From a virus, in IMG/VR virus record IMGVR_UViG_3300029023_000077: a stretch of 64,000 bases of DNA. One strand, 5' to 3'. Made by a program: the position numbers and the translations under genes. Shown one piece after another: positions 19,666-45,641 of the stretch; position 1 is the stretch's first letter, and the number at the start of each line of letters is the position of its first letter. The notes beneath the pieces were generated by a model that was given only the letters and a program-made list of their open reading frames with translations, was not told where the DNA came from and searched no databases.

Positions 19666-19671
19666 GGTTAA

Positions 19672-22726: not shown

Positions 22727-22727
22727 G

Positions 22728-24290: not shown

Positions 24291-24372
24291 AATCAGGGTA
24301 GGGGTGCTTAACCGGCGCCCCACCAGTGTATGTTTTTAGAATTGTGTAAAAGGTAGGATTTTCCTATGGGTG

Positions 24373-24406
24373 CAAGGCACCATATCATACTAGATATGGT
24401 GCCTTG
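24373..24406 (+). terminator. 13-bp perfect hairpin inside the structured intergenic region
   Basis: CAAGGCACCATAT-catactag-ATATGGTGCCTTG followed by TTATAAAG. Confidence 0.45.
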
Positions 24407-24635
24407 TTATAAAGTGGCGTGAGCTGCTATATTGTAAGTTCGCTTGCAATAGCTTATTTACAATATTTATTTCGCTGAAGAAGCAGTCTCACAAAGTACA
24501 AATGTACGCACGCCACCCTGGAGACTGCCATATGCAGATTAAGGTCTGCATAGCACAATAATCACTCAGGGCTTAACTCGCTAAGCCCTACAACAGTAGT
24601 TCGCTGCTGTTGGCATAGAAACTGTTATCCAGATA

Positions 24636-25295
24636 TTGATAAAAGCAAGCACGCATGGTCGTGCTTGCTTGTGGTTTAGGTATATGAAAAATGAATATGT
24701 TTTAGTAAGGGACAATGTGATAGGTTATGGTATTGATGCGGAGTCCCGTGAAGAGGACTGGCTGATTAATAAGTTAGGCATGGAAGAAGAACTTCCATGG
24801 AAATATCGTAAAGAATTGATGGACTTCAGCCCATGGTTTCCTAACAAGCAGATGCTGCATATATCAGGTGTTGGCTGTTTAAAATACTCTAAGCAAACTT
24901 TGGTAAATACAGCAAATAATCAATCAGTAGAAGTTGCCAAGTGTGGTAAGAGTATTTACTACTATTTAATGAGAACTATCGGTATGCAGTTGGCTTATAA
25001 AGATATTAGAGTGACTTTAAGACCATATATAGAATCATTTTTTACGAACATATCAGTCGAATTTAATAGGTTAGTTGATTATGACACGATAATGGTTATG
25101 AATGACACTGACCTAGCTTATGGTACAAGGTATGATTTTGAATCATATTCAATATTCATGAGTGGCTCTATGTTAGGATTAAAGCCATTATTAGCAAAAC
25201 AATGGTACATACTTACTAATAGCTCTAATTGGGAATTTGATATCTGTTACTTAGCATACAGAGTAGGTATTGATGTCAAGGAGGTTATTTTATGA
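24636..25295 (+). CDS. hypothetical protein
   Basis: 219-aa ORF; true start may be ATG 24681. Confidence 0.45.
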   Translation: MIKASTHGRACLWFRYMKNEYVLVRDNVIGYGIDAESREEDWLINKLGMEEELPWKYRKELMDFSPWFPNKQMLHISGVGCLKYSKQTLVNTANNQSVEVAKCGKSIYYYLMRTIGMQLAYKDIRVTLRPYIESFFTNISVEFNRLVDYDTIMVMNDTDLAYGTRYDFESYSIFMSGSMLGLKPLLAKQWYILTNSSNWEFDICYLAYRVGIDVKEVIL

Positions 25296-25516
25296 TTATA
25301 CCAAATTTTAAAGCTGTATCAGATCCTGTTGTCTTAGCTCTAATAGCTGATTTGAATTGTATTGCAAGCAACATAGGTACTAATGGTATTTCAGAGTTTG
25401 ACAAAGGAAAGCTTGCGGCGTATGTAACTGTACTTTCGGCAGACGGGTTGTCAAATGAGTTTATAAAACAAATGTTTATTATGATTAACCCTAAATTAGA
25501 AGAAGTGGAGATATAA
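25292..25516 (+). CDS. hypothetical small protein
   Basis: 74-aa ORF, coupled start. Confidence 0.4.
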   Translation: MIIPNFKAVSDPVVLALIADLNCIASNIGTNGISEFDKGKLAAYVTVLSADGLSNEFIKQMFIMINPKLEEVEI

Positions 25517-25518
25517 AT

Positions 25519-25971
25519 ATGTTAAAGAATAGAATAGAATTAGTTCCAGAGCAAATAAATACAGTAGAAGATCTTATTAAAGTCTTAATGAAGGTTCCAG
25601 CTAAGTATAAGCTCAATGCGAATGAACAGCCTATTCAGATTTGTGTGGATCATGATTATGAGTGTGTCTATATGGGAGCATTTATGGAGATAGTTGATTA
25701 CGTGGATGATGTTGAAAAGGAGTTGGCGAAAACCGGGCAGGCATCTAAGATTAGTGTGCCAGATGAGAAACTGCAGACATTCCAGCAGGAACTGCATGCA
25801 GTTATGGGATATGCAGATGCTAACGAAAATGGAAGTTATGAAACTCAGCTGTATGGTGTATTTAGTAAAAAAGAAATTGCCGAGGAATGTGGTGATGAGC
25901 TCGTAGAGTGTGGTAATATTCATCACTATGAAATTGAGTGTCCCATGCTTGATGAGTTTGGATGGAAGTAG
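25519..25971 (+). CDS. hypothetical acidic protein
   Basis: 150-aa ORF. Confidence 0.5.
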   Translation: MLKNRIELVPEQINTVEDLIKVLMKVPAKYKLNANEQPIQICVDHDYECVYMGAFMEIVDYVDDVEKELAKTGQASKISVPDEKLQTFQQELHAVMGYADANENGSYETQLYGVFSKKEIAEECGDELVECGNIHHYEIECPMLDEFGWK

Positions 25972-25984
25972 AGGTGCTTAAATA

Positions 25985-27157
25985 ATGGTGGGTAAGATTG
26001 ATTCTTTTGATAAGGTAATTGGGCACAAGTCTTTAATTACGTACATACAGCATTGGATCGACACAGACACGACGCCTAATGTTCTGTTGTTTCATGGTAA
26101 TCCAGGTCTTGGTAAATCGTCTATTGCAAAATTGTTGGCGATTGCTCTTACAACAGATGAAAGTACGCGGAAGGATGCTGTAGAGAATGTAATTTACAAT
26201 AATAGGTCTACTGGAAGTATAAAACTATTCAGCATGTCAAAGATTCAGGACAAAGAAGAGGAGATTAAGAAAGTTTCTGGGGAACTACAGATGAACTTTG
26301 TTAATACAAAGCATAAGGTTCTAATTCTGGATGAAGCACATGAGATGTCAAAGGCAGCACAGGATTCTATTCTTGTTGAATTGGAACATCTACCTGAAGG
26401 ACTGCACGTTTTTATTTGTACAACAGAGATTAATGCATTTCGACCGGCTCTAGTTTCTCGTTGTAAGGTGCTTGAATTACATCCGTTATCTGAAAACGAA
26501 GCAAGACAGTTGTTTAACCGTGAAGTAAAAGAAAGGGATCTTACATTTGAGCTTCAGCAGGGGCTGGCTTCAACGCTTATCTGTGGATGGGCGGAAAACC
26601 AGCCACGTAAGATAATTAATCTGTTGGACAATTTTGAGAATCATGCATTAGTAAAGACAAGGGAGTTGGAAGTATTCATTAACACTGTCAACTCATCTTC
26701 AGTTATAGAGCTTGTTAAGTATCTCTATGGATCAATGCCATTAGGTATTGAATACATTCAATCCATCAAGCTGGATAATACTTTTGTGATGATGCTTATT
26801 GAGGTAACAAAGGTTGCAATGGGTGTGCCATCAAACAGACTTAGCCTACCTGATGTACAGTATATACAGGCTTTTATGCAGGATAAAGATATTAATAAAC
26901 TCTTGCAGTTTGTCATTGAGGTATCTGGGCTTAGTACATTATATAAGCGTCGTGTTATCTCTGCCTTTATGAGAGCACATGTAGATTTCAAGAGAGCAGT
27001 CCCAATAAATGAAGTCCATACAAGTGCAGGTGCGGATATACAGGCAGTAGCAGACAATATTGAAGATAAAAGTGCTATGATACAGCGACAGGAAGGTGTA
27101 CAAGGCGTTACACCTGTTGACATGCTATTTGATCAGCTTAGCACAGTGGAGGTGTAA
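25985..27157 (+). CDS. AAA+ clamp-loader subunit (RFC / Pol III gamma-tau / gp44-like)
   Basis: Walker A GNPGLGKSS, Walker B LILDEAHEM, sensor-1 ICTTE, SRC motif ALVSRCKVLEL. Confidence 0.7.
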   Translation: MVGKIDSFDKVIGHKSLITYIQHWIDTDTTPNVLLFHGNPGLGKSSIAKLLAIALTTDESTRKDAVENVIYNNRSTGSIKLFSMSKIQDKEEEIKKVSGELQMNFVNTKHKVLILDEAHEMSKAAQDSILVELEHLPEGLHVFICTTEINAFRPALVSRCKVLELHPLSENEARQLFNREVKERDLTFELQQGLASTLICGWAENQPRKIINLLDNFENHALVKTRELEVFINTVNSSSVIELVKYLYGSMPLGIEYIQSIKLDNTFVMMLIEVTKVAMGVPSNRLSLPDVQYIQAFMQDKDINKLLQFVIEVSGLSTLYKRRVISAFMRAHVDFKRAVPINEVHTSAGADIQAVADNIEDKSAMIQRQEGVQGVTPVDMLFDQLSTVEV

Positions 27158-27161
27158 ATAG

Positions 27162-27524
27162 ATGATATATACAAGCTATTACAAAAATGTTGCAGATGTC
27201 GGTCCTGCCTATACGTTGATACAAGTATCTAACTCAAAACCTAAATGGTTTCCTTGGGGTGTATGGCCTTTGCCAGAAGTGTATCCTGATTTTGAGAATG
27301 TTAAGGCTTTGAAAGATGGGGTAATGTCAGAAGATCGCTTTTCTCAGTTATATAGAGAGAAACTAGCTAAGTTAGATAGAACTGTCATTCTTAACAAGAT
27401 TAATGAGATTGTATCTTTGGGCGATGATAAGGATGCTATGCTGTTATGCTGGGAAAGCTCTGATAAGTTCTGTCATAGACATATATTAGCAGAGTGGTTA
27501 GGTAATAATATTCAGGAATGGTGA
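27162..27524 (+). CDS. hypothetical protein
   Basis: 120-aa ORF. Confidence 0.45.
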   Translation: MIYTSYYKNVADVGPAYTLIQVSNSKPKWFPWGVWPLPEVYPDFENVKALKDGVMSEDRFSQLYREKLAKLDRTVILNKINEIVSLGDDKDAMLLCWESSDKFCHRHILAEWLGNNIQEW

Positions 27525-27739
27525 GGGATTATATGAGTGAAATCACAGATGCATGGGAGAAAGTTAAAAATAAGTATATTGCAAGATACTATGAGCATTA
27601 CACAAAATACTTAGAAAATCCAAATGATTTGGTGAATAAAGGTGCAATGCTTGAGAATTGTTATGTACTTATTCATGTCTTCGGCTGCTCCGAGAGGTAC
27701 ATACTGGAAATCGAAAGGTGTGGATTTCCAAAGGAGTAG
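27518..27739 (+). CDS. hypothetical small protein
   Basis: 73-aa ORF. Confidence 0.4.
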   Translation: MVRDYMSEITDAWEKVKNKYIARYYEHYTKYLENPNDLVNKGAMLENCYVLIHVFGCSERYILEIERCGFPKE

Positions 27740-27787
27740 TTGAAATAGGATAATGACTATTATATAATAAAAGAGAAGGAACTTAAT

Positions 27788-28640
27788 ATGGCAGTAGATA
27801 TTAATGCAATGAGAAAATCTCAGTCCACAGTAGCTATAGATCTGGTTAATGATAAGTTTACGGAGAAGATGTCGAATATACAGCTATTAGACTATATTGC
27901 ATTGGTTCTTGCACGTAATATGGCATCCAATATTGCTTTTAAGGGTGGTTGGGTATTACGTCAGATTATGGAAGGTCATGCTAGGGCAACAAAGGATGTT
28001 GACCTTTCTGCGGAAACTGAAAAAAAGCTATGATGAAGTGAAAGCTGTTTTAAAGGAAATTGGGCAGTTATTACAAGCCAGAGGAATGATTAATGAATTT
28101 GTGATAAAAGAGGAGATAAAGCCAACACAATCCGGAGGTATCACAATGTATAAGGATGGCTCTATTGTTGCTGGTGTGGATGTTGGTCTGCATAACATAC
28201 ATTATGGCGTTCAGCACTATGAGCTTAATTATGGGTTTGACGCTTTTACGATAGAACGTATGTTGTCTGATAAGATATTGGCTATATTAACACGGAAGCA
28301 TTTTCGAAGAACAAAGGATTTGTATGATGTCTATGCCATTTCTCATGTTTTTGACTTCAGTTCGCAAAAGATAGTGGAATTTATGAGAGAACGAGGTGTG
28401 ACTCCTGAATGGGATAATATACCGTTTAGCGCTGTAGTTTTAGAACAATACGAGATTGCTTGGAATAAATTAAGGGTGCAGGCTATATCGACTGATGTTG
28501 AGGTGGAAAAGCCTTCATTCACGGCTGCTATAAGCACGTTTAATGAAATTGCTTATAAAGTAAAAGAAATATGGTTAGGACAGGACAGCTCTGTGTATGA
28601 GTGGAACCATAATAATTGTGGGTGGTCTGTTTCAGAATAG
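27788..28640 (+). pseudogene. AbiEii/DUF1814-like nucleotidyltransferase split at an A7 homopolymer
   Basis: Part 1 27788-28033 carries NIAFKGGWVLRQIMEGHARATKDVDLS (KGG...R.T.D.D NTase motif). Part 2 is the ORF from 27897 to 28640 in the adjacent frame. Deleting one A at 28020-28026 fuses them into one ~284-aa protein. Confidence 0.5.
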
Positions 28641-28648
28641 GAGAAAGT

Positions 28649-29071
28649 ATGAAGTATGATGGATTAGTTGTTGAATCTAGTATTATGTGTGGACAGTGCG
28701 CATTGGCTAGAAATGGCTTGACGACACATAACAGTGAGTCGCTGTGTTTTTGGACTTCCGTAAAAGAATTGGACGGCAAGGATTTTCGTTGTGTCACCTA
28801 CTATTACAAGAAGGATTTCGATACAGAACATTATCTAGCACCGGCTAAAACTAATCCACTCATTTTGATTCCAACGCCAGAACGTGCAATAGTTGAATAC
28901 ATTCAGAATGAAAAGTGGTGTGATGAGGGTACGCTAATTGAAGCATTGAAAAGCTACTTATTCAGGTATGGTAATACTGAGAAGTTGTTTGAGGTTGCAA
29001 GATTCTTTGGGCTATCTGAGGAGCATCTAAGCTATTGGATAACTGAAGCAGAGGAAGATGAGGAAATATAA
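28649..29071 (+). CDS. hypothetical acidic protein
   Basis: ATG 28649 with RBS GGAGAAAG; ORF open from 28616. Confidence 0.45.
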   Translation: MKYDGLVVESSIMCGQCALARNGLTTHNSESLCFWTSVKELDGKDFRCVTYYYKKDFDTEHYLAPAKTNPLILIPTPERAIVEYIQNEKWCDEGTLIEALKSYLFRYGNTEKLFEVARFFGLSEEHLSYWITEAEEDEEI

Positions 29072-29084
29072 ATAAACTGTAGGA

Positions 29085-29121
29085 AGACTGGGTATATTAC
29101 ACCCAGTCTTTTATTATGCTT
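29085..29121 (+). terminator. rho-independent terminator
   Basis: AAGACTGGGT-atattac-ACCCAGTCTT 10-bp stem then TTATTATGCTT. Confidence 0.6.
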
Positions 29122-29192
29122 AAAAATAATGATATGAACTGACATATCTAATTGGGAAGTAATTACAATTCAAGTGAAGAAGGTGAAATTTT

Positions 29193-29477
29193 ATGAAATT
29201 AGATTTAGCTAAATTATTTTCCGGTAACGAAGGTGAGCAGATTGTGGAGTTGACATATTGTCAGGTAAATCAGTTACCTGCTATTAGTGGATATTCCTAT
29301 TGGCTGGCTGTTAAAGGTTGCAATGCTATACAGTATTTTGGTGACGAAAGCGTTGAGGTTGTGGGAGAAACTGAAGAGTGTTTTGAACTGCGTAGTACAA
29401 CACGCAGCATTATTTCTCGTGACGATCGTGGATTCAAGTTAACAAAGGCTGAATTTGAAAATTTAGTAAAGGAGTAG
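29193..29477 (+). CDS. hypothetical protein
   Basis: 94-aa ORF with RBS GAAGGTG. Confidence 0.5.
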   Translation: MKLDLAKLFSGNEGEQIVELTYCQVNQLPAISGYSYWLAVKGCNAIQYFGDESVEVVGETEECFELRSTTRSIISRDDRGFKLTKAEFENLVKE

Positions 29478-29479
29478 TT

Positions 29480-29989
29480 ATGATATTAGGCATTACAGGA
29501 CCTAGACCATCCAAATTAAACTGGGGTTATGATATGAATAGCCCTAATTGGATGGCTTTACGTAGATATTTTATGCATTACTTCATTGAACATAATGTTA
29601 CTGAGGTTATTACAGGCATGGCCTTGGGTGTTGATACTGCAGCAGCATTAGCAGTTCTTGATTTAAAGGACCAAGGTTATGATATTATGTTACATTGTGC
29701 TATTCCGTGTCAGAATCAAGAGTCCAGATGGCTGCCGGAAAGTCAAAGGTTGTATAAGTCAATTCTGGATAGAGCTGATTTAGTCATCATTGTAACTGAT
29801 GCGCCATACTCACCTTGGTTAATGCAGACACGTAATCAGTACATTGTTAATATATCAGATCAAATGCTGGCTATTTGGGATGGTTCGCGTGGTGGTACAG
29901 CTAACTGCATTGATTATGCTCAAAAGATGCGGAAGCCGATTACTGTTGTACAACCTCTATTTGTTTTGGAGACTAATTATGGTTTATGA
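29480..29989 (+). CDS. SLOG-superfamily Rossmann protein (DprA/YpsA/LOG-like)
   Basis: ITGMALGVDTAAA and DGSRGGTANCIDYA resemble the GxD...PGGxGT signatures of DprA/YpsA/LOG proteins. Confidence 0.4.
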   Translation: MILGITGPRPSKLNWGYDMNSPNWMALRRYFMHYFIEHNVTEVITGMALGVDTAAALAVLDLKDQGYDIMLHCAIPCQNQESRWLPESQRLYKSILDRADLVIIVTDAPYSPWLMQTRNQYIVNISDQMLAIWDGSRGGTANCIDYAQKMRKPITVVQPLFVLETNYGL

Positions 29990-30155
29990 AGTGAAGGAAA
30001 GTAAGGAGTCATTGAATGGCATAGGAATGCGAGTTGGTATTTGTTCACATTGTGGGCAGCCAGTAACTTATTGGTTAAACAGATACACATGTCATTTCTG
30101 CCATGCTGAGGTTTTATGGAAGAATGGTGGACAGGATGATGAGAAGAAACAGTAG
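29979..30155 (+). CDS. small zinc-ribbon protein
   Basis: CSHCG ... CHFCH four-Cys/His ribbon; reading frame open from 29844. Confidence 0.35.
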   Translation: MVYEVKESKESLNGIGMRVGICSHCGQPVTYWLNRYTCHFCHAEVLWKNGGQDDEKKQ

Positions 30156-30753
30156 ATCTAGAGTATGTGAAATTAAAGAGGTAACGCAACATAAACTTGC
30201 AGCTTGTCCTAGCTGTAGTAAGATTATTGACCAGCTATCTAGTACAAAAGAATGTACTTATTGCGGTGTCAAGCTCCGTTGGCCCAAGGATAGCACAAAG
30301 GTTATCAGGTGTATTGATCCGTACAGGGGATTATACACGGGAGACATAGTAGTTCATTTTAAACGAGAACTTATGTCAGAAGAAGATCTGAAAGAGGAAC
30401 CTAATTTGTATATGTATGAAATTCTAGGGGAAGTAATGTCAGCAGACAATCTTGAAGAAATGGTCATTTACAGGGCACTTTATGAAGGTAACGCCATTTA
30501 TGCTCGTAAGAAATGTGAGTTCCTTGATAGTGTTGATAAAATTAAATACCCTGAAATCAAACAAATACATAGATTTGAGAAGATGGTACGTTGTATGGCT
30601 TCTGTAAATCAGGTGAGGGTTCATCATGCAGAGCTGTCTACTGCTGACCTTAGCGAGCTTGCCCAGATGCAGAGAGCTTGCAATAAGGCAGGAGATGGCA
30701 AAAGAGGAGAAGGAGGTATTTTATGCCAGATTATAGGAAAGTCCAAGAACTAG
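30103..30753 (+). CDS. zinc-ribbon protein
   Basis: CPSC ... CTYCG ribbon; start uncertain (ATG at 30103, 30124 or 30136). Confidence 0.5.
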   Translation: MLRFYGRMVDRMMRRNSRSRVCEIKEVTQHKLAACPSCSKIIDQLSSTKECTYCGVKLRWPKDSTKVIRCIDPYRGLYTGDIVVHFKRELMSEEDLKEEPNLYMYEILGEVMSADNLEEMVIYRALYEGNAIYARKKCEFLDSVDKIKYPEIKQIHRFEKMVRCMASVNQVRVHHAELSTADLSELAQMQRACNKAGDGKRGEGGILCQIIGKSKN

Positions 30754-31103
30754 AGTCAGCAAGGATACTAACAGAACAGTATTATGCAGATTGTGTTAAA
30801 TATATTGATGTGAAGCCAGGCAGTCCTGGAGTATCAACTTCTCTATACTATGCAAAAGATCATGAAGATGTTGTGCATAATTATATATTTACTACTTATT
30901 TTACAGAAACAACATACTTAACAATTATCATTGATACGACATGGTTAGTTGAAGTAGGCAGAGTATATACAGAAATAGATGGAGTAATGGCTACTACGTG
31001 CTTTGACGGGTCAGTTGGATATTTCAGTGGGTTGAGTGACATTGCTAGAGACATACGTAAACGTCTGTCAAAGGGAGTAAATAGTTATGTTGAAACAGTG
31101 TAA
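30723..31103 (+). CDS. hypothetical protein
   Basis: 126-aa ORF. Confidence 0.45.
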   Translation: MPDYRKVQELESARILTEQYYADCVKYIDVKPGSPGVSTSLYYAKDHEDVVHNYIFTTYFTETTYLTIIIDTTWLVEVGRVYTEIDGVMATTCFDGSVGYFSGLSDIARDIRKRLSKGVNSYVETV

Positions 31104-31275
31104 AGATACGAAGAGTAAGCATAGGAAACGGCTTCATGCTAAGGCTTTGTGTGACTCTAAGAAACAGACTCCTGAGCAGGTTCTTTATGGGTTAATTGTA
31201 AATGTGGACGGTTAGCCAGTCCGTTCAATGCAGAATGTTATTGGTGTTTTCAGAAATTAAAGAGAGGTATATAAA

Positions 31276-31500
31276 ATGAGTAAAGTTAGTGTATTCGTAG
31301 AAGAGCATTTAGTACGTGAATTGACGTTTGATGTACAAGATGAAGATGCAGACGCTAGAATGGTCAAAGCAGAAAAGTTAGCAAGAGAGCAAATTAAAGC
31401 TAGGGAGGTTGTTTTGAACGCTAATGATTTTAGCGGCACACGGTTGCTTATGGTGCGGGACCATCAGTCAGATTTTGAGACGAATTGGTTTAATTTTTAA
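31276..31500 (+). CDS. hypothetical small protein
   Basis: 74-aa ORF. Confidence 0.45.
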   Translation: MSKVSVFVEEHLVRELTFDVQDEDADARMVKAEKLAREQIKAREVVLNANDFSGTRLLMVRDHQSDFETNWFNF

Positions 31501-31525
31501 AGAAAGAGGAAGGAGAAATAATTAG

Positions 31526-32479
31526 ATGTTTTTAATTGTATTAAGTATTTTATTATTCATTGCAGCATTTGTTGGCTTAGGCTTCAAGAGGTTTGATGTA
31601 GAGGTAGATGGGTGTGTAGAAGATGTGATTAAGTGGAAGATCAATTTTAAGCAGGTATTAAGCCTACTTGCTTTTATTTTGATTATTCCAGCTTGTATTG
31701 CGAAGGTACCTGCTAATTCTGTTGGTATCTTATACTCGCCGTTTACAGGCACAAGTGAAATAACTTTATCGGAAGGCTACCATTCAAAGAACCCATTAGA
31801 TACTGTTTACAACATATCGTCTGAGGTGCAGACAATGTCCGTGTCTAATTTGACTACACAGACAAAGGATGCTCAATTTGTTAACTCAACGCTTGACATT
31901 AAGTACCGTGTCGATCAGGATAAAGCATTCTTAGTGTTTAAGCAGTTTAAGACTTTGGATAATATGTCACAGAATCTTATTATCCCTACAACACAGAGAG
32001 TATTGGAACTTATCACTACGAGATATAATGTTATGGACGTCCTTGGTGAGAGTAGAAGTCAGATTTATGCAGAACTTGAGGCAGACTTATCAAAAGAACT
32101 TGCTAAGTACGGTGTAGCATTTTATTCAATCTCTATTTCTGATATGGATGCAGGGTCTGAAATTGAAGCTGCTATTACTGCAGAGGCTGTAGCTAAGAAA
32201 GCTGTAGAAACTGCAGAGCAGGAGTTATTGAAGACAGAGACAGAAGCTAAGAAGAAGGCTGTAGAAGCACAGGCTGCTCAGGATGCTGCTAAGATTGAGG
32301 CTGAGACAAAGATTATTCAGGCACAGGCTGAAAAAGAAGCTAATGAGCTGTTACAGCAGTCTCTTTCACAGCATATTCTTGCTCAGGAATGGATTGCTAA
32401 GTGGAATGGTAAAACACCTACATATTATAGTGGTAGTGCCAATGACTTATTACTTAACATGGGTAATCTTGAGGAGTAG
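31526..32479 (+). CDS. SPFH / band-7 (stomatin-prohibitin-HflKC) membrane protein
   Basis: N-terminal TM helix, then SPFH core and alanine/glutamate-rich coiled-coil tail EAKKKAVEAQAAQDAAKIEAETKIIQAQAEKEA. Confidence 0.65.
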   Translation: MFLIVLSILLFIAAFVGLGFKRFDVEVDGCVEDVIKWKINFKQVLSLLAFILIIPACIAKVPANSVGILYSPFTGTSEITLSEGYHSKNPLDTVYNISSEVQTMSVSNLTTQTKDAQFVNSTLDIKYRVDQDKAFLVFKQFKTLDNMSQNLIIPTTQRVLELITTRYNVMDVLGESRSQIYAELEADLSKELAKYGVAFYSISISDMDAGSEIEAAITAEAVAKKAVETAEQELLKTETEAKKKAVEAQAAQDAAKIEAETKIIQAQAEKEANELLQQSLSQHILAQEWIAKWNGKTPTYYSGSANDLLLNMGNLEE

Positions 32480-32482
32480 CAG

Positions 32483-32593
32483 ATGGAAAAGAAAGAAGTT
32501 CATAAATATTATGCTTGCATTAAAGTTGTACCTGATGCAACATTTAATCTGAGCGATGGTTCTGTTAATACAATCAAAGCTACAATTACGTAA
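32483..32593 (+). CDS. small ORF (36 aa) followed in frame by a second ORF
   Basis: RBS GAGGAG; TAA at 32591-32593 separates it from an in-frame ATG at 32624. Confidence 0.3.
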   Translation: MEKKEVHKYYACIKVVPDATFNLSDGSVNTIKATIT

Positions 32594-32623
32594 AGTAAAA
32601 CAGGTTTTGTGAGAACTGACAGA

Positions 32624-32749
32624 ATGCCTAGCAATATGCAGGTGAAAGTGGGCACAGACATCACAGGAAGTATTACATCAACATCACAGCCTGGAGTCTG
32701 GGATGGCACTTTCAACTTTACAAGCAGTACGGAAAAATTAACAAATTAG
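32624..32749 (+). CDS. small ORF (41 aa), in frame with 32483 ORF
   Basis: MPSNMQVKVGTDITGSITS...; same reading frame as the upstream small ORF. Confidence 0.3.
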   Translation: MPSNMQVKVGTDITGSITSTSQPGVWDGTFNFTSSTEKLTN

Positions 32750-32818
32750 TGCAGAAGGTTAGGTAATTTCAAAATTACCTAACCTTCCCTACGAATTGAT
32801 TAGTTTAAGGAGAATGGG

Positions 32819-33742
32819 ATGAAATTTGAAGATATAGAGCCATATATAGTTTGTAAAGCAGCGCCTCTTCCTGCTGAACTTAATGGGAGAGTGAGTATTG
32901 GGTTTAAGAATGTAGAAATACATTTGGAAGAGTGGCATGTTAGAGATAATATTGTATCAGCAGTAGCAAGGCGTAATATCTTGCAGTCTGGTCTGAATGT
33001 TGTAGGTGTCCATGCACCGTTGAAGCACGATGAACTTGTCAACACATTAATTCCAGAAGTTTGCATTAACTCGGATATTCGTGGAGAAGTATCTAGAACA
33101 TTATCCCTTGCACAAGACTTGGCAGATGTGATGAAGCATAAAGTTTATGTTGTACTTCACTCATTGTCATCGGTAGAGCTGTTGAAGCAGGAAGGCCAAG
33201 TCTGGAATAGTATATCGAATTTCTTTTTGAAAAGCATACATGAATACCCGGATGTCGTATACACTTTTGAGAATATAACGCCAATATGTGAGGTAGGGAC
33301 GTTTGTTTCAGGGTCTTGTTTTGAGAATGTAAGTATGTGTAAAGCTCTAAGAGAGGAGATAGGGCAGTCCTATTTCTTTACAACATTAGATACATGCCAT
33401 GCATTGACGACGACACGGATGTACAATTTGTTGAATGAATATGATAACAATATTATATGCCAGAAGTTTGATACTTTTGCTAATATCAATCGAAAGTACG
33501 TGAATAATATACATTTATCCTATGTAGAACAGCTTGGATTTGCTCCCGGCACACATGGCATATCTCATGATTTAGCAAACCGTGAATCGTGCGATCATTT
33601 TAATGAGTGTATGGAGTACATTACATCATTGTCAGATAATATGCCTCATATCACGTTGGAGGTAAAAGAGCAGGATTATAGTAATCCACAAAGCTCTATT
33701 ATACAACGACAGAATATAGCAGAATATTTTAATAAGGAGTGA
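32819..33742 (+). CDS. xylose-isomerase-like TIM-barrel protein, endonuclease IV (Nfo)-like
   Basis: TFENITP (cf. VIENTAG) and FFTTLDTCHALT (cf. Nfo GVCIDTCHAFAAGY) metal-ligand motifs. Confidence 0.5.
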   Translation: MKFEDIEPYIVCKAAPLPAELNGRVSIGFKNVEIHLEEWHVRDNIVSAVARRNILQSGLNVVGVHAPLKHDELVNTLIPEVCINSDIRGEVSRTLSLAQDLADVMKHKVYVVLHSLSSVELLKQEGQVWNSISNFFLKSIHEYPDVVYTFENITPICEVGTFVSGSCFENVSMCKALREEIGQSYFFTTLDTCHALTTTRMYNLLNEYDNNIICQKFDTFANINRKYVNNIHLSYVEQLGFAPGTHGISHDLANRESCDHFNECMEYITSLSDNMPHITLEVKEQDYSNPQSSIIQRQNIAEYFNKE

Positions 33743-33746
33743 AAGT

Positions 33747-33968
33747 ATGTTCTTAGAAAATATTGACTCTCACACACTATTTATAATTGGGATAGCAATT
33801 GCTGTCTTAGTCATTGCAAAAATGATAGGCAAGGCGGTGAAGTTATGCGTAGCTTTAGTCATTGTGATTATAGTGCTTAGCTTTGCCGGTGTATTTGGGT
33901 CAGATGGGTTATTTAGTTCAAACATACCTGACACATATTATTGTCTTAATACAGGAGGTTATAGATGA
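33747..33968 (+). CDS. small two-TM membrane protein
   Basis: 73 aa with two hydrophobic helices. Confidence 0.45.
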   Translation: MFLENIDSHTLFIIGIAIAVLVIAKMIGKAVKLCVALVIVIIVLSFAGVFGSDGLFSSNIPDTYYCLNTGGYR

Positions 33969-34615
33969 ATCTTTGTGATTTGAAGATTGGTGATGCTATA
34001 ACAGTAAAAGCTTCACATGGTTTGGACTGTATTGAGTTCCAATCTACAATTGCAGGCAGTGTGAATGGTATAGCTGTAATGGATCCAGTTATCAGCTCGT
34101 CAAAGCTGGTAAATTTTGTATCAGATTTTGTTAAGACAGATATCCTGTATGAAGCTAGTAATAGTGCTACTTACATATTTACGAATGTACATATTCTTAA
34201 TGAAAAGGATATGAATGGTAAGTTAATGTCCTTTATCCATTGTAGGGATGAGGGTATGCTCTTAAATAGACGAGAGACTAAACGTTTTGTTGTAAATGAA
34301 GTTTGTGTTTTCTCACCTGGTCCACACAGGGCAGCTGTGAATGCTACGATTAGAGATATCAGCCTGGACGGTGTATGTATTGTAAGCACGCTAGTTGCAT
34401 CAGTTGGAAGTATCGGGAGATTCTCTTTTATTCCAGAGAAAGTAAAGGGATTAGGGAATATTTCAGAGGAGATAGAAATCTGTCGTGTTGTAAATGACCC
34501 AGAGAGTGATCGTGTTATGTGTGGTTGTAAATTTACATCACGTAACAATATGATAAATAAGTACATTGCAGCTTATCAGAGACAACTGCTGAAAGATAAG
34601 GCTAATCCTAGTTAA
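33965..34615 (+). CDS. PilZ-domain protein (putative c-di-GMP receptor)
   Basis: RRETKR (RxxxR) followed ~30 aa later by RDISLDGVCIV (D-x-S-x-x-G). Confidence 0.5.
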   Translation: MNLCDLKIGDAITVKASHGLDCIEFQSTIAGSVNGIAVMDPVISSSKLVNFVSDFVKTDILYEASNSATYIFTNVHILNEKDMNGKLMSFIHCRDEGMLLNRRETKRFVVNEVCVFSPGPHRAAVNATIRDISLDGVCIVSTLVASVGSIGRFSFIPEKVKGLGNISEEIEICRVVNDPESDRVMCGCKFTSRNNMINKYIAAYQRQLLKDKANPS

Positions 34616-34708
34616 ATTGGGTTAGCCTATCTGTTGAAGAATATTATTTTATGTAAAACTTGACGTAAAGTTGTAAGGAACTATATTATATAATGAGGTG
34701 GTGATAAA

Positions 34709-35839
34709 ATGATTGATATTTCAAAAGAAAGAGCTGGCATGACCAAAGAAGTTACTATAAACCTTGAGTCAGTTAGATATAGCTGCGAATTACAGTTACG
34801 CAATAAATTAACATGTATTGTTGGAGATAGTGGTAGAGGAAAAACAGAGTTTACACGACAGCTACAGTATCCATTAACAAGAGTAGCTGTATCTAATGGG
34901 TATCAAGTTGTAAATTTAACAAATGTGTTATTTCAACAGTCATTACAATTTGCACTAAGACACAATAAGAATAATGATAAAGTGTCCAAATTCTTAAATG
35001 AATATTGGAGTAATTTAGATAACGTGCCATATCAAAATTGTATTTTGATAATTGATGATGAAGAATTTATTAAAACAGAAGAATTTGCAGTATATTATAA
35101 TACAGATATATCAAATTACTTTGTTATAATTGATAGATCTGATCTACATCAGTTGTCATACTCACCGTCCTCTATATATAAATTTGTAGCACAAGGAAAA
35201 AATCACTATATAGCAGAATATTATGATTTTAATTGGGACCCAGAGGCATGCATTGATTACATTATAGTAGAAGGAGTTGGTTCTGATTATATCTTTTTCA
35301 AAGAGATGTTCAAGTCTAAATTTGTTGTCTGTAATCCTATGCAATTTTCTGACTTGAATAGTGGTGGTAGATTTAATGTAGTGAAAATGTTAGAGACAAA
35401 CACTAATATATTTCAGGGAAAAACTATTATGCTGCTGGTTGATTATTGTGCATTTGGTAGTAATATTCAAAGTTTGCAGAACTTGTGTTCCAAATTAAAT
35501 ATGAGGTTACTTTTGAATCCAAAATACCTTTCATTTGAGTATATGCTGCTGAAAAGTAATCTAATTAAATGTGATATTGATAATTTATTGTCTAAAGAGC
35601 AAGTTACTTGTAGTAATGTAGAAGAATACTGTACTAGGAAGCTGAGAGAAGTGACTAATGGTACTTATTATGCTTATAGTAAGGCTGGTTCTGATTTTAG
35701 TGTATGCTATTATAAAGATTGTTGTCAAAATCAGAGTAATAGGGGTGACTGCTCACATAGACTGCAGTACATTAATAAATCTAAAATTATGGAACTTCTA
35801 AGGAAAACAGATTTTGAATTTCTTTTAGACTTAAAGTAG
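34709..35839 (+). CDS. P-loop NTPase with Toprim-like C-terminal region (OLD/DUF4435-like?)
   Basis: Walker A GDSGRGKT, Walker B-like CILIIDDEE, later YIIVEGVGSDYIFF (Toprim-type Glu); lies in a markedly AT-rich segment. Confidence 0.45.
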   Translation: MIDISKERAGMTKEVTINLESVRYSCELQLRNKLTCIVGDSGRGKTEFTRQLQYPLTRVAVSNGYQVVNLTNVLFQQSLQFALRHNKNNDKVSKFLNEYWSNLDNVPYQNCILIIDDEEFIKTEEFAVYYNTDISNYFVIIDRSDLHQLSYSPSSIYKFVAQGKNHYIAEYYDFNWDPEACIDYIIVEGVGSDYIFFKEMFKSKFVVCNPMQFSDLNSGGRFNVVKMLETNTNIFQGKTIMLLVDYCAFGSNIQSLQNLCSKLNMRLLLNPKYLSFEYMLLKSNLIKCDIDNLLSKEQVTCSNVEEYCTRKLREVTNGTYYAYSKAGSDFSVCYYKDCCQNQSNRGDCSHRLQYINKSKIMELLRKTDFEFLLDLK

Positions 35840-35846
35840 GAGGTAT

Positions 35847-36314
35847 ATGTGTATGTTGTATATCTATATCGAAGAAGATGATAAGCCATTGCCAAGTGAT
35901 TATATGTCAAGGGTTTCCGACTGCTTTGATGGTATTTATTTGCCTGAATGGTTTAGTGATCCATTTGTCAGAGAAATGATTGAAATTATTGATAACTCTG
36001 TTGTTGAGCAAAACAATACTACAGACAGCATTAATATCTTTAATTCTGTTTTAGGTAACATACCTCCACAGAATTTGTCAACTGGTGTAAAAGCTCTTAT
36101 ACTGTTGTATAAAACAGATCTGAAGATTGATGGTGACAGGCTAGGTGATAATTGTATACCATTATTATTAAGAATTGCAGACAAGAAAGATATAACCATA
36201 TCCCTTGGGCATTTTCCAGCGTTTCCTGATAAGTTTGATGCAATAATTGTCAATAACGGTGTAAAGATTCACTCAGACATGGAGTTCTTTCATTGGAGAA
36301 TAAACCTAGTGTGA
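35847..36314 (+). CDS. hypothetical protein in the AT-rich islet
   Basis: 155-aa ORF with RBS GGAGG; LSTGVKALILLY resembles an ABC signature motif. Confidence 0.45.
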   Translation: MCMLYIYIEEDDKPLPSDYMSRVSDCFDGIYLPEWFSDPFVREMIEIIDNSVVEQNNTTDSINIFNSVLGNIPPQNLSTGVKALILLYKTDLKIDGDRLGDNCIPLLLRIADKKDITISLGHFPAFPDKFDAIIVNNGVKIHSDMEFFHWRINLV

Positions 36315-36329
36315 TATAAATAGATAAAC

Positions 36330-36364
36330 AGCTTAGACTTGAAATAGTCTGGGCTGTTTTTTCA
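36330..36364 (+). terminator. rho-independent terminator
   Basis: AGCTTAGACT-tgaaat-AGTCTGGGCT (two G-U pairs) then GTTTTTTC. Confidence 0.6.
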
Positions 36365-36579
36365 ATTGCCTTAAAATTTTATTATCAGCTTACCATATAT
36401 ATTTGAGGATATATTTTATATATCAGAAAGTGAGGAATTTATTTTATGAGACACAAAATGCGTAAAGGTTTTATCTTAGGTGTAGTTTCAACAGTCGTTA
36501 GTTATTGTTGTTACTGTATGGTAGAGGATTACGTTATGTCAAAGAAAACAACTATTTAAAATCAGAAAGGAGTAATTTT

Positions 36580-37806
36580 ATGTTAAAGAGAATGTGTAAA
36601 GTAGGTTTAGGTGTGGCTGGTGTTGTAGGAGCTTATGGTTTATATAAGCTCACTAAGGATATGAATACAGCTGTAGAGACCTGTGATGTAACAGACAGTC
36701 AAGAAGATAGTAGCGCTACTGCTGAAGATACTGAAGCTAAGATAAAGAGGCTTCGGGTTGAATTAACAGGAATGTTTAAGGAAACAGGTGACTATCAGTT
36801 CGTAAACCACTTAGAGGAAGCTATAAGGGAAGGAAGTACAGTTCTTATTGTTGGCCTGATTAGTTATAGAATTTCCCTTATTAATTGGATGAAAGAGTAT
36901 TACGAAGCATCCGGTAAGAATTTGAATATTGTAGATCCAGTACTTAATGCTAAAGCAGTTAAAGCTTGCAATGAACCTACAGTATATGGGGCATCAAGAG
37001 TATTAGAATCTGATGCAATTGATGTAATATTTAAAATTGATCCCCCTAATGATGTTACAGATATTGAATTGTTACCAACTGTATCAGTACATCTACCAGG
37101 TTATCAGCTGTTTGAAGGTATTGACATTATTGAGGATGGTTACACGAAGCAGTATATCGATAAGGCTGTTGAGCTGGGTAGTCATGTTCTTATTGCTGGT
37201 GAAAATTCGGGATTCAAAGCTCAGTTTATAGACCATCTTGGAAGATATGCAGAGGATAAGTTAGGTTATTTACTCAATTCCTGGGATATTGAAGACATAT
37301 TGCCTTCTTCTGGAGCAAGTAAAAGATTTAGTTTGACTGTTGCAGAGAAGGATATTTCTGAGTTGGAACATAAATTCTATACGCCACATGATTATGATCT
37401 GATTTTAAATGTTTGTAAGGTTGAGGAAATGACGCATCTACAGGTTGTGGCAAGATCATTCAGCTTGGACACATCTATTGAATTGTACAATGCTCTGAAA
37501 CTGGTTGGATATACTTTTGAACAGCCTGTTGAAGGCATCAATTTTCTTGTAAAGATTTTGCAGAAAGAGGCTGAGGTTATTGTTGTTGGTCCAGACAGTA
37601 CTGACAGAAGTATACTCTGTGGTATTCTTAATACAGCAGCTTCTGACCTTTCTGAAATTAAAGTTATTGATTCTAAGTGCGTATCTAAAGAAGATGCGTT
37701 ACAAAAAGGAATTGTTAAAGAATCATGCGTCATACTCAATATTTCAGGATTAGGAGGAGCTAAGCGGATTAGCTATACATTTTGTGAAAGAGAAAAGGAG
37801 AATTAA
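36580..37806 (+). CDS. membrane-anchored hypothetical protein
   Basis: ATG 36580 after RBS GAAAGGAG; N-terminal helix VGLGVAGVVGAYGLY; ORF open from 36505. Confidence 0.5.
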   Translation: MLKRMCKVGLGVAGVVGAYGLYKLTKDMNTAVETCDVTDSQEDSSATAEDTEAKIKRLRVELTGMFKETGDYQFVNHLEEAIREGSTVLIVGLISYRISLINWMKEYYEASGKNLNIVDPVLNAKAVKACNEPTVYGASRVLESDAIDVIFKIDPPNDVTDIELLPTVSVHLPGYQLFEGIDIIEDGYTKQYIDKAVELGSHVLIAGENSGFKAQFIDHLGRYAEDKLGYLLNSWDIEDILPSSGASKRFSLTVAEKDISELEHKFYTPHDYDLILNVCKVEEMTHLQVVARSFSLDTSIELYNALKLVGYTFEQPVEGINFLVKILQKEAEVIVVGPDSTDRSILCGILNTAASDLSEIKVIDSKCVSKEDALQKGIVKESCVILNISGLGGAKRISYTFCEREKEN

Positions 37807-37809
37807 ATA

Positions 37810-38616
37810 ATGAATTACTGGACAGATAAGGAAAGAAGAAGAATAGCTGCGGTTGAATGGAATGAATATATCCATAATAATTATAAGGCTGAAATCAATG
37901 AGTGCATTAAGAAGACTGAGTTATGGGATGAGTTTTGTCCTTTAGAATATTCTGATGTTGTAGGTAGTGAGGTTGAATCTATGAAGGTTCTACAATTAAC
38001 CACAACACAGGCAATCAAACACTGCAGCCAAGAAGGTGAGAGAATAGCAGTATTGAATTTTGCTAGTTTCAAAAATCCTGGTGGTATGTTTTTAAATGGT
38101 TCTGGTGCGCAGGAGGAATCCCTATGCCATGAATCTCTACTGTACCCTGTATTAAAAGCATTCAATGCAAGTTATTATGCGGTTAACCATAATAACCTGA
38201 ATAGGGCTCTGTATAAAGATAAGTTGCTGTATTCTGTGGATATTCCATTCTTTGATATGAAGGCAAAGAAACCAGCAGACAAGGCGGATGTTATCACATG
38301 TGCAGCTCCTAATTGGGGTGCCTACGCAAAGTATCATGAGCCTATTTCTGATAGAGACATTGCTTTAAATCGTGAGATGCTTCGTTCACGGTTTGAGAAG
38401 CTCTACTTTGTTGCAGCAAAACATAATGTTGATACATTGATTCTTGGTGCATGGGGATGTGGTGTTTTCAAACAGAATATACATACTGTTATTGATGTAA
38501 TGCTTGAAGTAATAATGTCATATCAGGCAAATATTAAACATATTGTATTTGCTGTGCCTGATGCGGATAGTTTTAGAATATTTGATAGCAGGGTGAGAAA
38601 AGCAGTAGAAGCATAA
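37810..38616 (+). CDS. microbial-type poly(ADP-ribose) glycohydrolase (DUF2263/TIGR02452 macro domain)
   Basis: VLNFASFKNPGGMFLNGSGAQEESLCHESLLY = PARG GGG-x6-8-QEE signature; LILGAWGCGVFKQN second conserved block. Confidence 0.8.
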   Translation: MNYWTDKERRRIAAVEWNEYIHNNYKAEINECIKKTELWDEFCPLEYSDVVGSEVESMKVLQLTTTQAIKHCSQEGERIAVLNFASFKNPGGMFLNGSGAQEESLCHESLLYPVLKAFNASYYAVNHNNLNRALYKDKLLYSVDIPFFDMKAKKPADKADVITCAAPNWGAYAKYHEPISDRDIALNREMLRSRFEKLYFVAAKHNVDTLILGAWGCGVFKQNIHTVIDVMLEVIMSYQANIKHIVFAVPDADSFRIFDSRVRKAVEA

Positions 38617-38644: not shown

Positions 38645-38681
38645 GGGATGGCTAAATTTGAACCATCCCTATTATTTTATT
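38645..38681 (+). terminator. rho-independent terminator
   Basis: GGGATGG-ctaaatttgaa-CCATCCC then TATTATTTTATT. Confidence 0.6.
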
Positions 38682-39024: not shown

Positions 39025-39885
39025 GTGATTTTTGTGAATAAATCTGTAAGAATGGGTTCAATGTTAATTCTTACTTGTTTGCTGTCAGCTTGTGGGAAAA
39101 ATACAGAAACTGACAATACACTTGCTGTAGATACTGTAGTTGAGTCGTCAGAGCCAGAAGATATTGCAGTCAGTTTACCCGAATACTCAGTTCTTGATGA
39201 CCATTATGGTTTTCAGGCTTCTAAGGTTCGTAATGATGGGTCAGCTACATATATTGCTTCAGTAGTTAAAGATGGTACTAATCAGTCATACTCAGTATAC
39301 AATAGTTATTCGCAGGAAGACAATAATTCTGTTGATTATGTCAATATGTCGTTGGTTTTTGTAGGTGGTGACTGTTATTTGTACGAAACACATGGCTCTA
39401 TTGGCTCTACTCCAGACACAGATACAGTCTATAAAGTAGCTGATCCAAATTTCCAGTCATTTGATTTCACAGCATTTGATTTCTATACTACGATAGTTAG
39501 TATGTTAAGCTCTGTATCTTCTTACGAAGACATGGGTGTTACAACTTTTGAAACGGAATCTGGCAGCTATGAAGTAAATAACTATGATTGTACATCCACA
39601 GTGGGTATTGCAGTTGATGGTTTGATAAAGCTCCAAATTGACAAAGATTCTAATTTATTACGAGAAGTATCATTTACTGGCACTGCAATGAATACAGAAT
39701 ATACTCTGTATGAATATCAGGATGACGGCATGTTTTCTGATTTAGGGCAGGTATCAGATACAATCAGCTACACTGAGGCTTTAAGTCTTTTTAAAGATGC
39801 TGTATATAATGCTGAAGTTATTGTAGCAAGCGAGAGTAATGAGGTTCAGAAAGAGTCGTTTAAATATGAAGAGGTGCTTGAATGA
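39025..39885 (+). CDS. lipoprotein
   Basis: Signal peptide with lipobox LSAC-G; GTG start (alternative ATG 39052). Confidence 0.55.
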   Translation: MIFVNKSVRMGSMLILTCLLSACGKNTETDNTLAVDTVVESSEPEDIAVSLPEYSVLDDHYGFQASKVRNDGSATYIASVVKDGTNQSYSVYNSYSQEDNNSVDYVNMSLVFVGGDCYLYETHGSIGSTPDTDTVYKVADPNFQSFDFTAFDFYTTIVSMLSSVSSYEDMGVTTFETESGSYEVNNYDCTSTVGIAVDGLIKLQIDKDSNLLREVSFTGTAMNTEYTLYEYQDDGMFSDLGQVSDTISYTEALSLFKDAVYNAEVIVASESNEVQKESFKYEEVLE

Positions 39886-40736
39886 GGTTGAAGTTATTGT
39901 GTGTTGCAGTCATCCTTATGCTATTGACTGGCTGTTCACGGCAGGACGAGGCTGACGGATCTTTACGAGTAAAAGAATCTACGAGTTACAATAAAGTATA
40001 TTTTAATATCTCGGATGACATCTACTACCCAGTACATATTCCAGATGATTTGAACTATGTGACTGATAATACTAAATATATCTACGCTGATGATAACAAG
40101 CTTAATGTATCTGTCATATCTGGTGCAGATTATTACAAATTTTCGGAGTCTGTCTTAACTAAAAATACGGAGACAGTGCGAAAAAATATAGTTGCCACTA
40201 AAGACTGGGAGACTGCAGATGTTGCAGAGGCAGCTATTTACTTATATAACGATAAAGCTGTCCGTGTGCATGTAGAGGGAAATCCTGGTGCATTTGCAAC
40301 GATATTGGACGGCTTACAATCAGAGTGGTGCGAAAGATCAAAATATACGTCTTTGACAGTTCCTGAGGATTGTGTATTGGATGCACTCCCTACCTATACA
40401 GGCACTACAGAGATTTCTGCTGGTTTAGGTGGGCAGTTACGTAAGGTCTATTCCCTGAATAATGGAGAGGGTAGTCTTAGTGTATCACAGGAGTTCAGGA
40501 AATTTGATGAAGCCATTCAGTTGTACGAACAGCGAATAGCTACAATAGCAGATTCAGACTATGCAGCATGCCAGTATAAGTCAGATAATATCTATTATGC
40601 AGAAGTCAAGGATTATGTTGTTGGCGTCTATAAGGTTAATTTCAACACAGTATTGACCTGTTACGGAGTTGGTGACTCCGCCAAGTTAAATACTGTGTTC
40701 TTTTTATCAAATCAGACAAGTGAGGTGACTAAATAA
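39882..40736 (+). CDS. lipoprotein
   Basis: MRLKLLCVAVILMLLTGCSRQ lipobox. Confidence 0.55.
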   Translation: MRLKLLCVAVILMLLTGCSRQDEADGSLRVKESTSYNKVYFNISDDIYYPVHIPDDLNYVTDNTKYIYADDNKLNVSVISGADYYKFSESVLTKNTETVRKNIVATKDWETADVAEAAIYLYNDKAVRVHVEGNPGAFATILDGLQSEWCERSKYTSLTVPEDCVLDALPTYTGTTEISAGLGGQLRKVYSLNNGEGSLSVSQEFRKFDEAIQLYEQRIATIADSDYAACQYKSDNIYYAEVKDYVVGVYKVNFNTVLTCYGVGDSAKLNTVFFLSNQTSEVTK

Positions 40737-41679: not shown

Positions 41680-42073
41680 AGGCCTGTAATGGTTTCGACA
41701 GGGTTATGAGGTTAAGTATTGCATCGGTCAGTCACCTATAACCAAAAAACAAAAAAATAGACGCTACAAGACGCCCTATGGCTATTGCTGCTTAATCTCG
41801 TGAGAGGTTGGTTGTTATAGTTCCGTTGCTACCGGGTAATGGGACGATGGTGATAGCTACCTCAACGTTTGCTACTATAAAGTAAATAGCTATGATGCTA
41901 GACTCCCAATCTTAGTATTGATATACAGCCTCGCAAGGAGGCTAGGTGCACAAACAATGGCCATGTAAGGTTTGTTAATTTTACCTGTATATGACTGTAA
42001 CGAAAATTAACTAAGATGTAGATATACTTATTAGTACTTTCTTTGGACACGGGTTCGATTCCCGTCAGGTCCA
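41680..42073 (+). ncRNA. ssrA: tmRNA (SsrA-like transfer-messenger RNA), tag ATRRPMAIAA
   Basis: 5' AGGCCUGUAAUGGUUUCGACAGGG parallels GGGGCUGAUUCUGGAUUCGACGGG. AAAAAAAUAGAC-GCU... parallels E. coli AAAAAAUAGUC-GCA at the resume codon. The tag frame GCU ACA AGA CGC CCU AUG GCU AUU GCU GCU UAA lies at 41763-41795. 3' end is T-arm ACGGG-UUCGAUU-CCCGU plus acceptor CAGGUCC-A pairing with 5' GGCCUG (G3:U). Length ~394 nt. Confidence 0.8.
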
Positions 42074-42161
42074 CTTAGATACTAGGAGAGGCTAAGACTC
42101 TAGTAGTGATGAGACCATCACACTAGTAGCTTTAAGTAAACAAAGCGAAGGAGATTTATTT

Positions 42162-45189: not shown

Positions 45190-45260
45190 CTGCACATGGT
45201 ATCTATAGTGAAGACAAGAGTTAAGTTTAAAAATAATATTTTATGGATGGAGGTTTTATT

Positions 45261-45641
45261 ATGCTAGATATTAATAAGATGAGAGAAAAACAGGCTTCTG
45301 TTAAAGAAGGTTTAGAATACGATAAGGTTCATGATTTCGACGATTTACAGATGGAAGAAATTAGATTAGGGCTCACTGATGGGCTAGATGTATCTGTCTA
45401 TGCTAAACATGAGTTTGATAGTGAGCAAATGTCAAAAATTAGATTAGGACTTCTCAATGGATTGGATGTATCTGTCTATGCTAAGCCTGAGCTCTCTTGG
45501 AAGCAGATGGAAGAAATTAGATTAGGACTCGCTGATGGACTGGATGTATCTGTTTACGCTAAGCCTGAGCTCTCTTGGAAGCAGATGGAAGAAATTAGAT
45601 TAGGGTTTACCACGTTAACTAAAATTAGAAATATTTTATGA
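45261..45641 (+). CDS. hypothetical protein with 26-aa tandem repeats, MLDINKMREK N-terminus
   Basis: ATG 45261 after GGAGGTTTTATT; 3.5 tandem 78-nt repeats LGLxDGLDVSVYAKPELSWKQMEEIR. Confidence 0.5.
   Translation: MLDINKMREKQASVKEGLEYDKVHDFDDLQMEEIRLGLTDGLDVSVYAKHEFDSEQMSKIRLGLLNGLDVSVYAKPELSWKQMEEIRLGLADGLDVSVYAKPELSWKQMEEIRLGFTTLTKIRNIL

Follow-up and report, generated by a model that had tools for sequence, protein, structure and literature searches.

What does a gene for the removal of ADP-ribose contribute to a giant mobile element? The question is raised by an open reading frame in a 64-kb stretch of viral DNA (64,000 nucleotides, hereafter the window), about a tenth of an element whose size is 600 kb or more. 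A preliminary description of this DNA had read the gene as a bacterial-type poly/mono(ADP-ribose) glycohydrolase (PARG) that might counter defence systems of the DarT type. PARGs hydrolyse poly(ADP-ribose) (PAR) at the C1''-O-2' bond between its riboses. For the thousands of PARG-type genes of bacteria and phages the sole functional lead dates from 2025, when two bacterial PARGs were reported to reverse ADP-ribosylation of the RNA 2'-OH and to guard against a type VI secretion system (T6SS) toxin (PMC11833690). Below we ask whether the gene encodes an active enzyme of this family, how it is transcribed and inherited, and which ADP-ribose linkages it might address. The features discussed are collected in Table 1.

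Table 1. Coordinates of the features in the window
Feature	Position	Strand	Details
Two calcineurin-like phosphoesterases	4883..5971 and 60165..61961
T2SSE/VirB11-type secretion ATPase	16245..17648
DUF488 gene	27162..27524	+	L010/L011 orthologue follows the clamp-loader gene and ends 5 nt before PARG
Variable accessory block, about 10.3 kb	27525..37809	+	separates DUF488 (replication module) from PARG in the window lineage
AbiEii-like nucleotidyltransferase	27897..28640	+	in variable block
YpsA-type SLOG protein	29480..29989	+	in variable block
DUF1653	30103..30753	+	in variable block
SPFH/Band_7	31526..32479	+	in variable block
PilZ	33965..34615	+	in variable block
AAA ATPase, weak PtuA-like match	34709..35839	+	in variable block
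DUF4869	35847..36314	+	in variable block, paired with AAA ATPase
Intrinsic-terminator-like hairpin, strong	36326..36359	+	scan; 14 pairs then U run; -20.4 kcal/mol, z=-6.7
37-aa small Cys-rich hydrophobic ORF	36446..36559	+	MRHKMRKGFILGVVSTVVSYCCYCMVEDYVMSKKTTI; gene calls (L001 8637..8750, offset 27809); in variable block
408-aa lineage-specific ORFan	36580..37806	+	called as 408 aa in all relatives; in variable block
Bacterial-type PARG (DUF2263/TIGR02452)	37810..38616	+	268 aa, ATG start
PARG signature N89-P-G91-G92-M-F94-L-N-G97-S98-G-A100-Q101-E102-E103	38074..38118	+	residues 89-103, NPGGMFLNGSGAQEE; catalytic Glu-Glu
Diphosphate-binding loop G213-A-W-G216-C-G218-V219-F220	38446..38469	+	residues 213-220, GAWGCGVF
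Terminator-like hairpin with U-rich tail, moderate	38645..38681	+	GGGAUGG / CCAUCCC stem
Gene with lipobox-like N-terminus (...LLSAC...)	39025..39885	+	translation; overlaps 39882..40736
Gene with lipobox-like N-terminus (...LLTGC...)	39882..40736	+	translation; overlaps 39025..39885
tmRNA gene, complete	41680..42076	+	ARAGORN tag peptide ATRRPMAIAA; Rfam RF00023 87.3 bits
HipA_C-like kinase domain, weak	58840..60123

Family assignment and predicted active site

Judged by profile searches and predicted fold, the ORF is a genuine member of the bacterial-type PARG family, with a resemblance beyond chance. The preliminary description had assigned it to DUF2263 and had named a search against PF10021 (PARG_cat_microb) as the check; this profile gave 96.9 bits (E=1.8e-27) against a cutoff of 23.5 bits, and the NCBIfam model TIGR02452 gave 175.2 bits (E=1.8e-51; cutoff 50 bits) over residues 25-254 of 268. 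A phmmer comparison with the PDB sequences recovered the PARGs of D. radiodurans (5zdb, E=5e-29) and T. curvata (3sig, E=2e-23), with the QEE triplets of both proteins aligned to that of the window protein. The profile of the canonical PARGs, PF05028, reached 13.6 bits with the 268-aa protein, below its cutoff of 26.3, and PHROGs and PADLOC scans of the protein returned no match. The ATG is preceded by an AAGGAG Shine-Dalgarno sequence 9 nt to its 5' side.

The structure predicted by AlphaFold2 from an alignment with 64 homologues (mean pLDDT 94, pTM 0.91) consists of an alpha/beta macrodomain core preceded by N-terminal helices at residues 3-24 and 26-35. In Foldseek comparisons this model matched the T. 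curvata PARG (3sih/3sig) at TM 0.79-0.82 and the D. radiodurans PARG (5zdb, 5zd*) at TM 0.73-0.77, followed by the canonical PARGs of Tetrahymena and human at about 0.5, with other macrodomains far behind. An N-terminal helical extension is a described trait of bacterial PARGs (PMC8120803). The two profiles, the PDB matches and the predicted fold all agree on the DUF2263 assignment.

In the alignment of the 64 homologues, G91, G92, F94, G97, S98, A100, Q101, E102 and E103 of the signature are invariant, as are G213, G216, G218, V219 and F220 of the diphosphate loop, which is the GAWGCGVF block singled out in the preliminary description. The GGG-x6-8-QEE motif quoted there stands in its QEE and its spacing of seven residues but not in its third glycine, so that the window protein reads G91-G92-M93-x7-Q101-E102-E103. 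Methionine is, however, the majority residue at this column and GGM the consensus of the closest homologues; on this alignment, Met93 is a departure from the textbook motif and not from the family. Loss of the two glutamates had been named as refuting; both are present throughout the 64 sequences, and the protein looks catalytically competent.

The substitution at Met93 is the one feature that might favour a non-catalytic ADP-ribose binder or a gene in decay. Such a reading is scarcely credible, given the invariance of every catalytic and ligand-binding column, the GGM consensus of the subfamily, a dN/dS of 0.16 against an orthologue of 78% identity, and the presence of an identical protein in 35 collection blocks of metagenome assemblies, that is, on dozens of contigs with a conserved neighbourhood. 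The product is almost certainly a macrodomain with an N-terminal helical extension that acts as a bacterial-type PARG, as predicted from the conserved residues and the model.

Transcription unit and immediate neighbours

With respect to its transcription, the gene had been described as a single-gene unit closed by a strong terminator. The first part of this description has to be abandoned: only 3 nt lie between the stop codon of the co-oriented 408-aa ORFan and the PARG ATG, and the first terminator encountered in the upstream direction is the strong hairpin that ends the preceding unit of AAA ATPase and DUF4869 and forms the upstream border of the PARG transcription unit. Just after this hairpin lies the 37-aa ORF, which gene calling recovers in every close relative and which is probably the first cistron. 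Given the 3-nt spacing, the 37-aa ORF upstream, a ribosome-binding site of its own and the flanking terminators, PARG can be placed at the end of a unit of three ORFs with the predicted order terminator, 37-aa ORF, 408-aa ORFan, PARG, terminator, in which the two upstream ORFs appear to be co-transcribed with PARG.

As for the downstream terminator, the hairpin with its U-rich tail is real but its strength is moderate: a 7-bp stem with an 11-nt loop (38645..38669; -11.2 kcal/mol, z=-2.2) is followed by UAUUAUUUUAUU, and the consensus terminator scan did not report it. In the relatives L007 and L009 the corresponding site is occupied by stronger, unrelated hairpins (-18.5 and -21.7 kcal/mol, respectively), and L010 has none there. 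A terminator of moderate strength downstream of PARG is plausible on these predictions.

The partner gene offers few hints. The 408-aa ORFan has a hydrophobic N-terminus in translation and gave no match to Pfam or PADLOC; it has 24 homologues, every one from the same element lineage, and a full phmmer pass retrieved 2 proteins among 1.8 billion representatives. Its AlphaFold2 model is poor (pLDDT 51), and Foldseek found no significant match to it (all E > 0.05, TM about 0.1). With this apparently membrane-anchored ORFan upstream and two lipoprotein-like genes downstream, the immediate neighbourhood of PARG lacks an ADP-ribose theme. A separate observation on the ORFan, a set of three internal P-loop-like repeats, was rejected, since only segments 1 and 2 resembled each other (z=3.2) and the other two comparisons were non-significant.

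Synteny and inheritance

Comparison of syntenic relatives indicates which parts of this arrangement are old. In L007 and L008, with a PARG of 78% identity, the ORFan still precedes PARG, and the AAA and DUF4869 pair is swapped for other genes; in L009 (52%), a PilZ gene and a 97-aa ORF precede it. The most divergent relatives, L010 and L011 (41%), are colinear with window positions 18511..27524, PARG and 39882..40736, sharing the ParA-like, 5'-3' exonuclease, clamp-loader and DUF488 genes at 32-62% identity. There, DUF488 runs straight into PARG across a 5-nt gap, and the homologue of the second lipoprotein-like gene follows, so that this gene stays beside PARG even at such a distance. The accessory block that intervenes in the window lineage is absent in L010 and L011 and partly replaced in L007. 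The PARGs of these elements form a single clade in a neighbor-joining tree, and the members of the 90% cluster of the window PARG sit on contigs of up to 608 kb.

Because its place beside the replication module is kept in divergent syntenic relatives (41-78% identity), PARG appears to be vertically inherited. By its gene order it is neither a stand-alone gene nor loose cargo but part of the syntenic backbone of the element family, and the combined prediction, a backbone gene transcribed within an operon, is very probably correct. The persistence of PARG beside the replication module across deeply diverged giant elements implies that removal of ADP-ribose routinely matters to them. As a side observation, the variable block, with its AbiEii-like, YpsA-type SLOG and weakly PtuA-like products, has the look of a defence or accessory hotspot.

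Predicted chemistry and role

Family membership provides hints as to the bonds that the enzyme might cleave. As generally predicted for the family, the protein would bind one ADP-ribose unit, and the Q101-E102-E103 loop together with the diphosphate loop G213-F220 would hydrolyse O-glycosidic bonds at C1'' to release free ADP-ribose. The candidate target bonds are the ribose-ribose linkage of PAR, the chemically identical linkage to the RNA 2'-OH, and ADP-ribose esterified at the 5'-phosphate ends of RNA or DNA. Two bacterial PARGs, SCO0909 of S. coelicolor and DRB0099 of D. radiodurans, strip off the ADP-ribose that the T6SS toxin RhsP2 attaches to the RNA 2'-OH and also remove ADP-ribose from the 5'-phosphate ends of RNA and DNA; mutation of the catalytic Glu abolishes their activity, and both enzymes protect E. 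coli from RhsP2 (PMC11833690). By analogy, the most likely role of the window PARG would be to erase the toxic ADP-ribose marks that ADP-ribosyltransferase (ART) toxins or defence enzymes leave on the element's nucleic acids or on those of its host, and so it would act as a repair or immunity enzyme in the manner of SCO0909 and DRB0099 against RhsP2. A counter-toxin or counter-defence role is, on this analogy, reasonable; the more specific proposal, repair of nucleic acids attacked by ARTs, is a tentative one whose chances are a little short of even. Taken as a whole, the explanation that combines an active PARG, an operon-borne backbone gene and anti-ART repair is, as a compromise among its parts, on balance probable.

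Conceivably, the gene encodes instead the eraser half of a writer/eraser cycle, in which an ART, PARP-like or otherwise, that is encoded elsewhere on the element or by the host writes a mark that PARG recycles or limits, whether on proteins, such as host transcription or translation factors, or in the form of PAR after DNA damage. Phage T4 offers a precedent for the first variant, as its Alt, ModA and ModB enzymes ADP-ribosylate host transcription or translation factors. The L010/L011 arrangement, in which PARG adjoins a replication and repair module (clamp loader, 5'-3' exonuclease, UvrD), would suit the cycle, as would the fact that the D. radiodurans PARG belongs to a repair operon induced by DNA damage (PMC11833690); the window scanned, moreover, leaves about 90% of the element outside (contigs up to 608 kb). 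Within the 64-kb window, however, we failed to detect any Pfam match to ADP-ribosyltransferase, PARP, DarT, Tpt1 or Sir2 domains among the + strand ORFs of at least 60 aa, and no ADP-ribosyltransferase gene adjoins PARG to make up an ART-macrodomain pair. Nor is an ART a recurrent neighbour of PARG at 80 IMG/VR loci. We consider the cycle unlikely.

The preliminary description had suggested resistance to DarT-type systems, and this now ranks as the least likely of the targets. Removal of ADP-ribose from the thymidine or guanosine bases of element DNA is a proven concept for a phage-encoded macrodomain, the DarG2-like AdfM (PhiKZ gp104), which erases ADP-ribosylation imposed by a defence system and is thus conceptually the same strategy on the part of a mobile element (PMC13309987), and the conservation of PARG beside replication genes would fit. 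AdfM, however, belongs to the DarG/TARG1-like class and acts on thymidine base-linked ADP-ribose in DNA, whereas the window protein is of the PARG-like class and would address another bond; by HMM and fold it is PARG-type, and PADLOC gave no DarG match. ADP-ribose linked to DNA bases is known to be erased by DarG/TARG1-like macrodomains and by NADARs (PMC11833690), and an anti-DarT function is very improbable for this protein.

Two further proposals concern signalling. In the first, PARG would cleave the 1''-2' or 1''-3' ribose-ribose bond of glycocyclic ADPR (gcADPR), the signal of Thoeris/TIR systems, or related ADPR conjugates, and would thereby silence effectors with SLOG or macro domains. 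From established bond chemistry we infer that the linkage is the same as in PAR; homologues fused to an SLOG-type domain (PF10686; e.g., P0011 and P0013) exist, and a YpsA-SLOG ORF is encoded in the window itself. Nevertheless, the PARG-SLOG fusions belong to other lineages, the PARG pocket recognizes a linear ADP-ribose unit, and no paper pairing gcADPR with PARG was found in the searchable literature; the proposal is speculative and highly unlikely to hold. The second is wider in scope: PARG would be a broad eraser of ribose-linked ADP-ribose that guards structured RNAs (tRNA, and the tmRNA of the element itself) against ART toxins and perhaps cleaves gcADPR signals read by SLOG domains, as a core gene of a hitherto undescribed group of giant bacterial extrachromosomal elements or megaphages of at least 0.6 Mb. 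Although highly unlikely, this combination would, if true, define a new enzymatic class of anti-signalling counter-defence.

Family distribution and comparison with known systems

Within its very large family the PARG gene is unremarkable, and the larger novelty is the uncharacterized element that carries it. More than 7,600 proteins score at E < 1e-5 among 8,000 candidates, with relatives in Bacillus phage G (gp114), in Lak megaphages and in an uncultured phage of 642 kb as well as in many giant eukaryotic viruses, including Bodo saltans virus and Tupanvirus, and at least 241 IMG/VR contigs, mostly of 100-280 kb, carry a relative. The PARGs of huge phages and giant viruses are of the same microbial-type family, likewise reside in very large viral or mobile genomes and share 30-49% identity with the window protein, but these genomes are not closely related to the window element, and their neighbourhoods differ without a common partner.

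A survey of gene neighborhoods at 80 IMG/VR loci, which fall into 25 groups at 80% identity, likewise revealed diverse surroundings and no recurrent partner. Even the most frequent cluster of neighbours, which has no Pfam match, is present in just 6 of the 25 groups. PTH2, a CCA-adding enzyme and DUF2828/DUF7788 each occur in 2-3 of the 25 and are at best a weak hint of RNA maintenance. Apart from these neighbours, nine homologues (P0011, P0013, P0014, P0020, P0023, P0026, P0030, P0035 and P0107; 389-399 aa) have the PARG-type domain fused to PF10686, which we take to be an SLOG-family domain. These fusions suggest, on domain architecture, a link between the PARG-type hydrolase family and the sensing of ADPR-derived ligands.

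Among characterized proteins, the closest in kind are the PARGs of T. curvata (3SIG/3SIH), D. radiodurans (DRB0099, 5ZDB) and S. coelicolor (SCO0909), which belong to the same PF10021/TIGR02452 family with a fold similarity of TM about 0.8 and have in common with the window protein the QEE loop, the GxxGxGVF diphosphate loop and the N-terminal helical extension. The identity to these proteins is 27-33%, with GGM in the window protein in place of GGG. The T. curvata enzyme is exo-only and the D. radiodurans enzyme endo-capable, a difference of the ribose cap, whose C-terminal position is Arg in the former and T267 in the latter. The genomic settings differ too: the D. radiodurans gene belongs to a ligase/PNKP repair operon (DRB0098-0100), whereas the window gene closes an operon of ORFans on a giant element of extrachromosomal type. 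Eukaryotic PARG (PF05028) shares the catalytic signature and the macrodomain core, but the window protein is about half its size and lacks its accessory domain. The window PARG offers a concrete protein for tests against substrates of the RNA-ADPr and DNA-ADPr kind and against ART-based defences.

The carrier element

The preliminary description had placed the gene in a mobile-element gene array, and this is borne out in the sense that genes for replication and partition and genes of toxin type, but no housekeeping genes, are strung along one strand of a giant uncharacterized array. All credible ORFs of at least 90 aa in the 64-kb window lie on the + strand, and the GC skew is uniformly positive at a GC content of about 0.37. 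Of the 92 non-nested ORFs on the + strand, about three quarters could not be assigned to a Pfam family. The recognizable remainder includes UvrD, a clamp loader, a 5'-3' exonuclease, a T2SSE-type ATPase, a ParA-like protein, a GreA-like protein and HTH repressors, together with the toxin-type HipA_C-like and AbiEii genes. No capsid, portal, terminase or tail PHROGs and no housekeeping genes were found in the window.

Comparisons with INPHARED phages, PLSDB plasmids, IMG/VR and the GTDB representatives yielded no close match to the element; scans for close relatives of the PARG in IMG/VR and the GTDB representative genomes were equally negative, and megablast of the 16 kb around PARG against INPHARED returned just a 34-nt match, at the 3' end of the tmRNA. 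We describe the carrier as a giant uncharacterized element, of the megaphage or of the plasmid-like extrachromosomal kind. The Inocle giant elements of oral streptococci were considered and set aside: their reported GC content is 24-32% as against about 37% here, and evidence of a relationship was not found.

The tmRNA gene follows PARG on the downstream side at a distance of 3 kb, and its last 34 nt (42042..42075) recur unchanged in an unannotated phage contig from human faeces (MT837964.1); the shared stretch could be an att-like site. Further downstream, a 132-aa ORF (45243..45641) without a Pfam match contains three tandem copies of a motif of ~33 aa (EEIRLGLxDGLDVSVYAKPELSWKQM).
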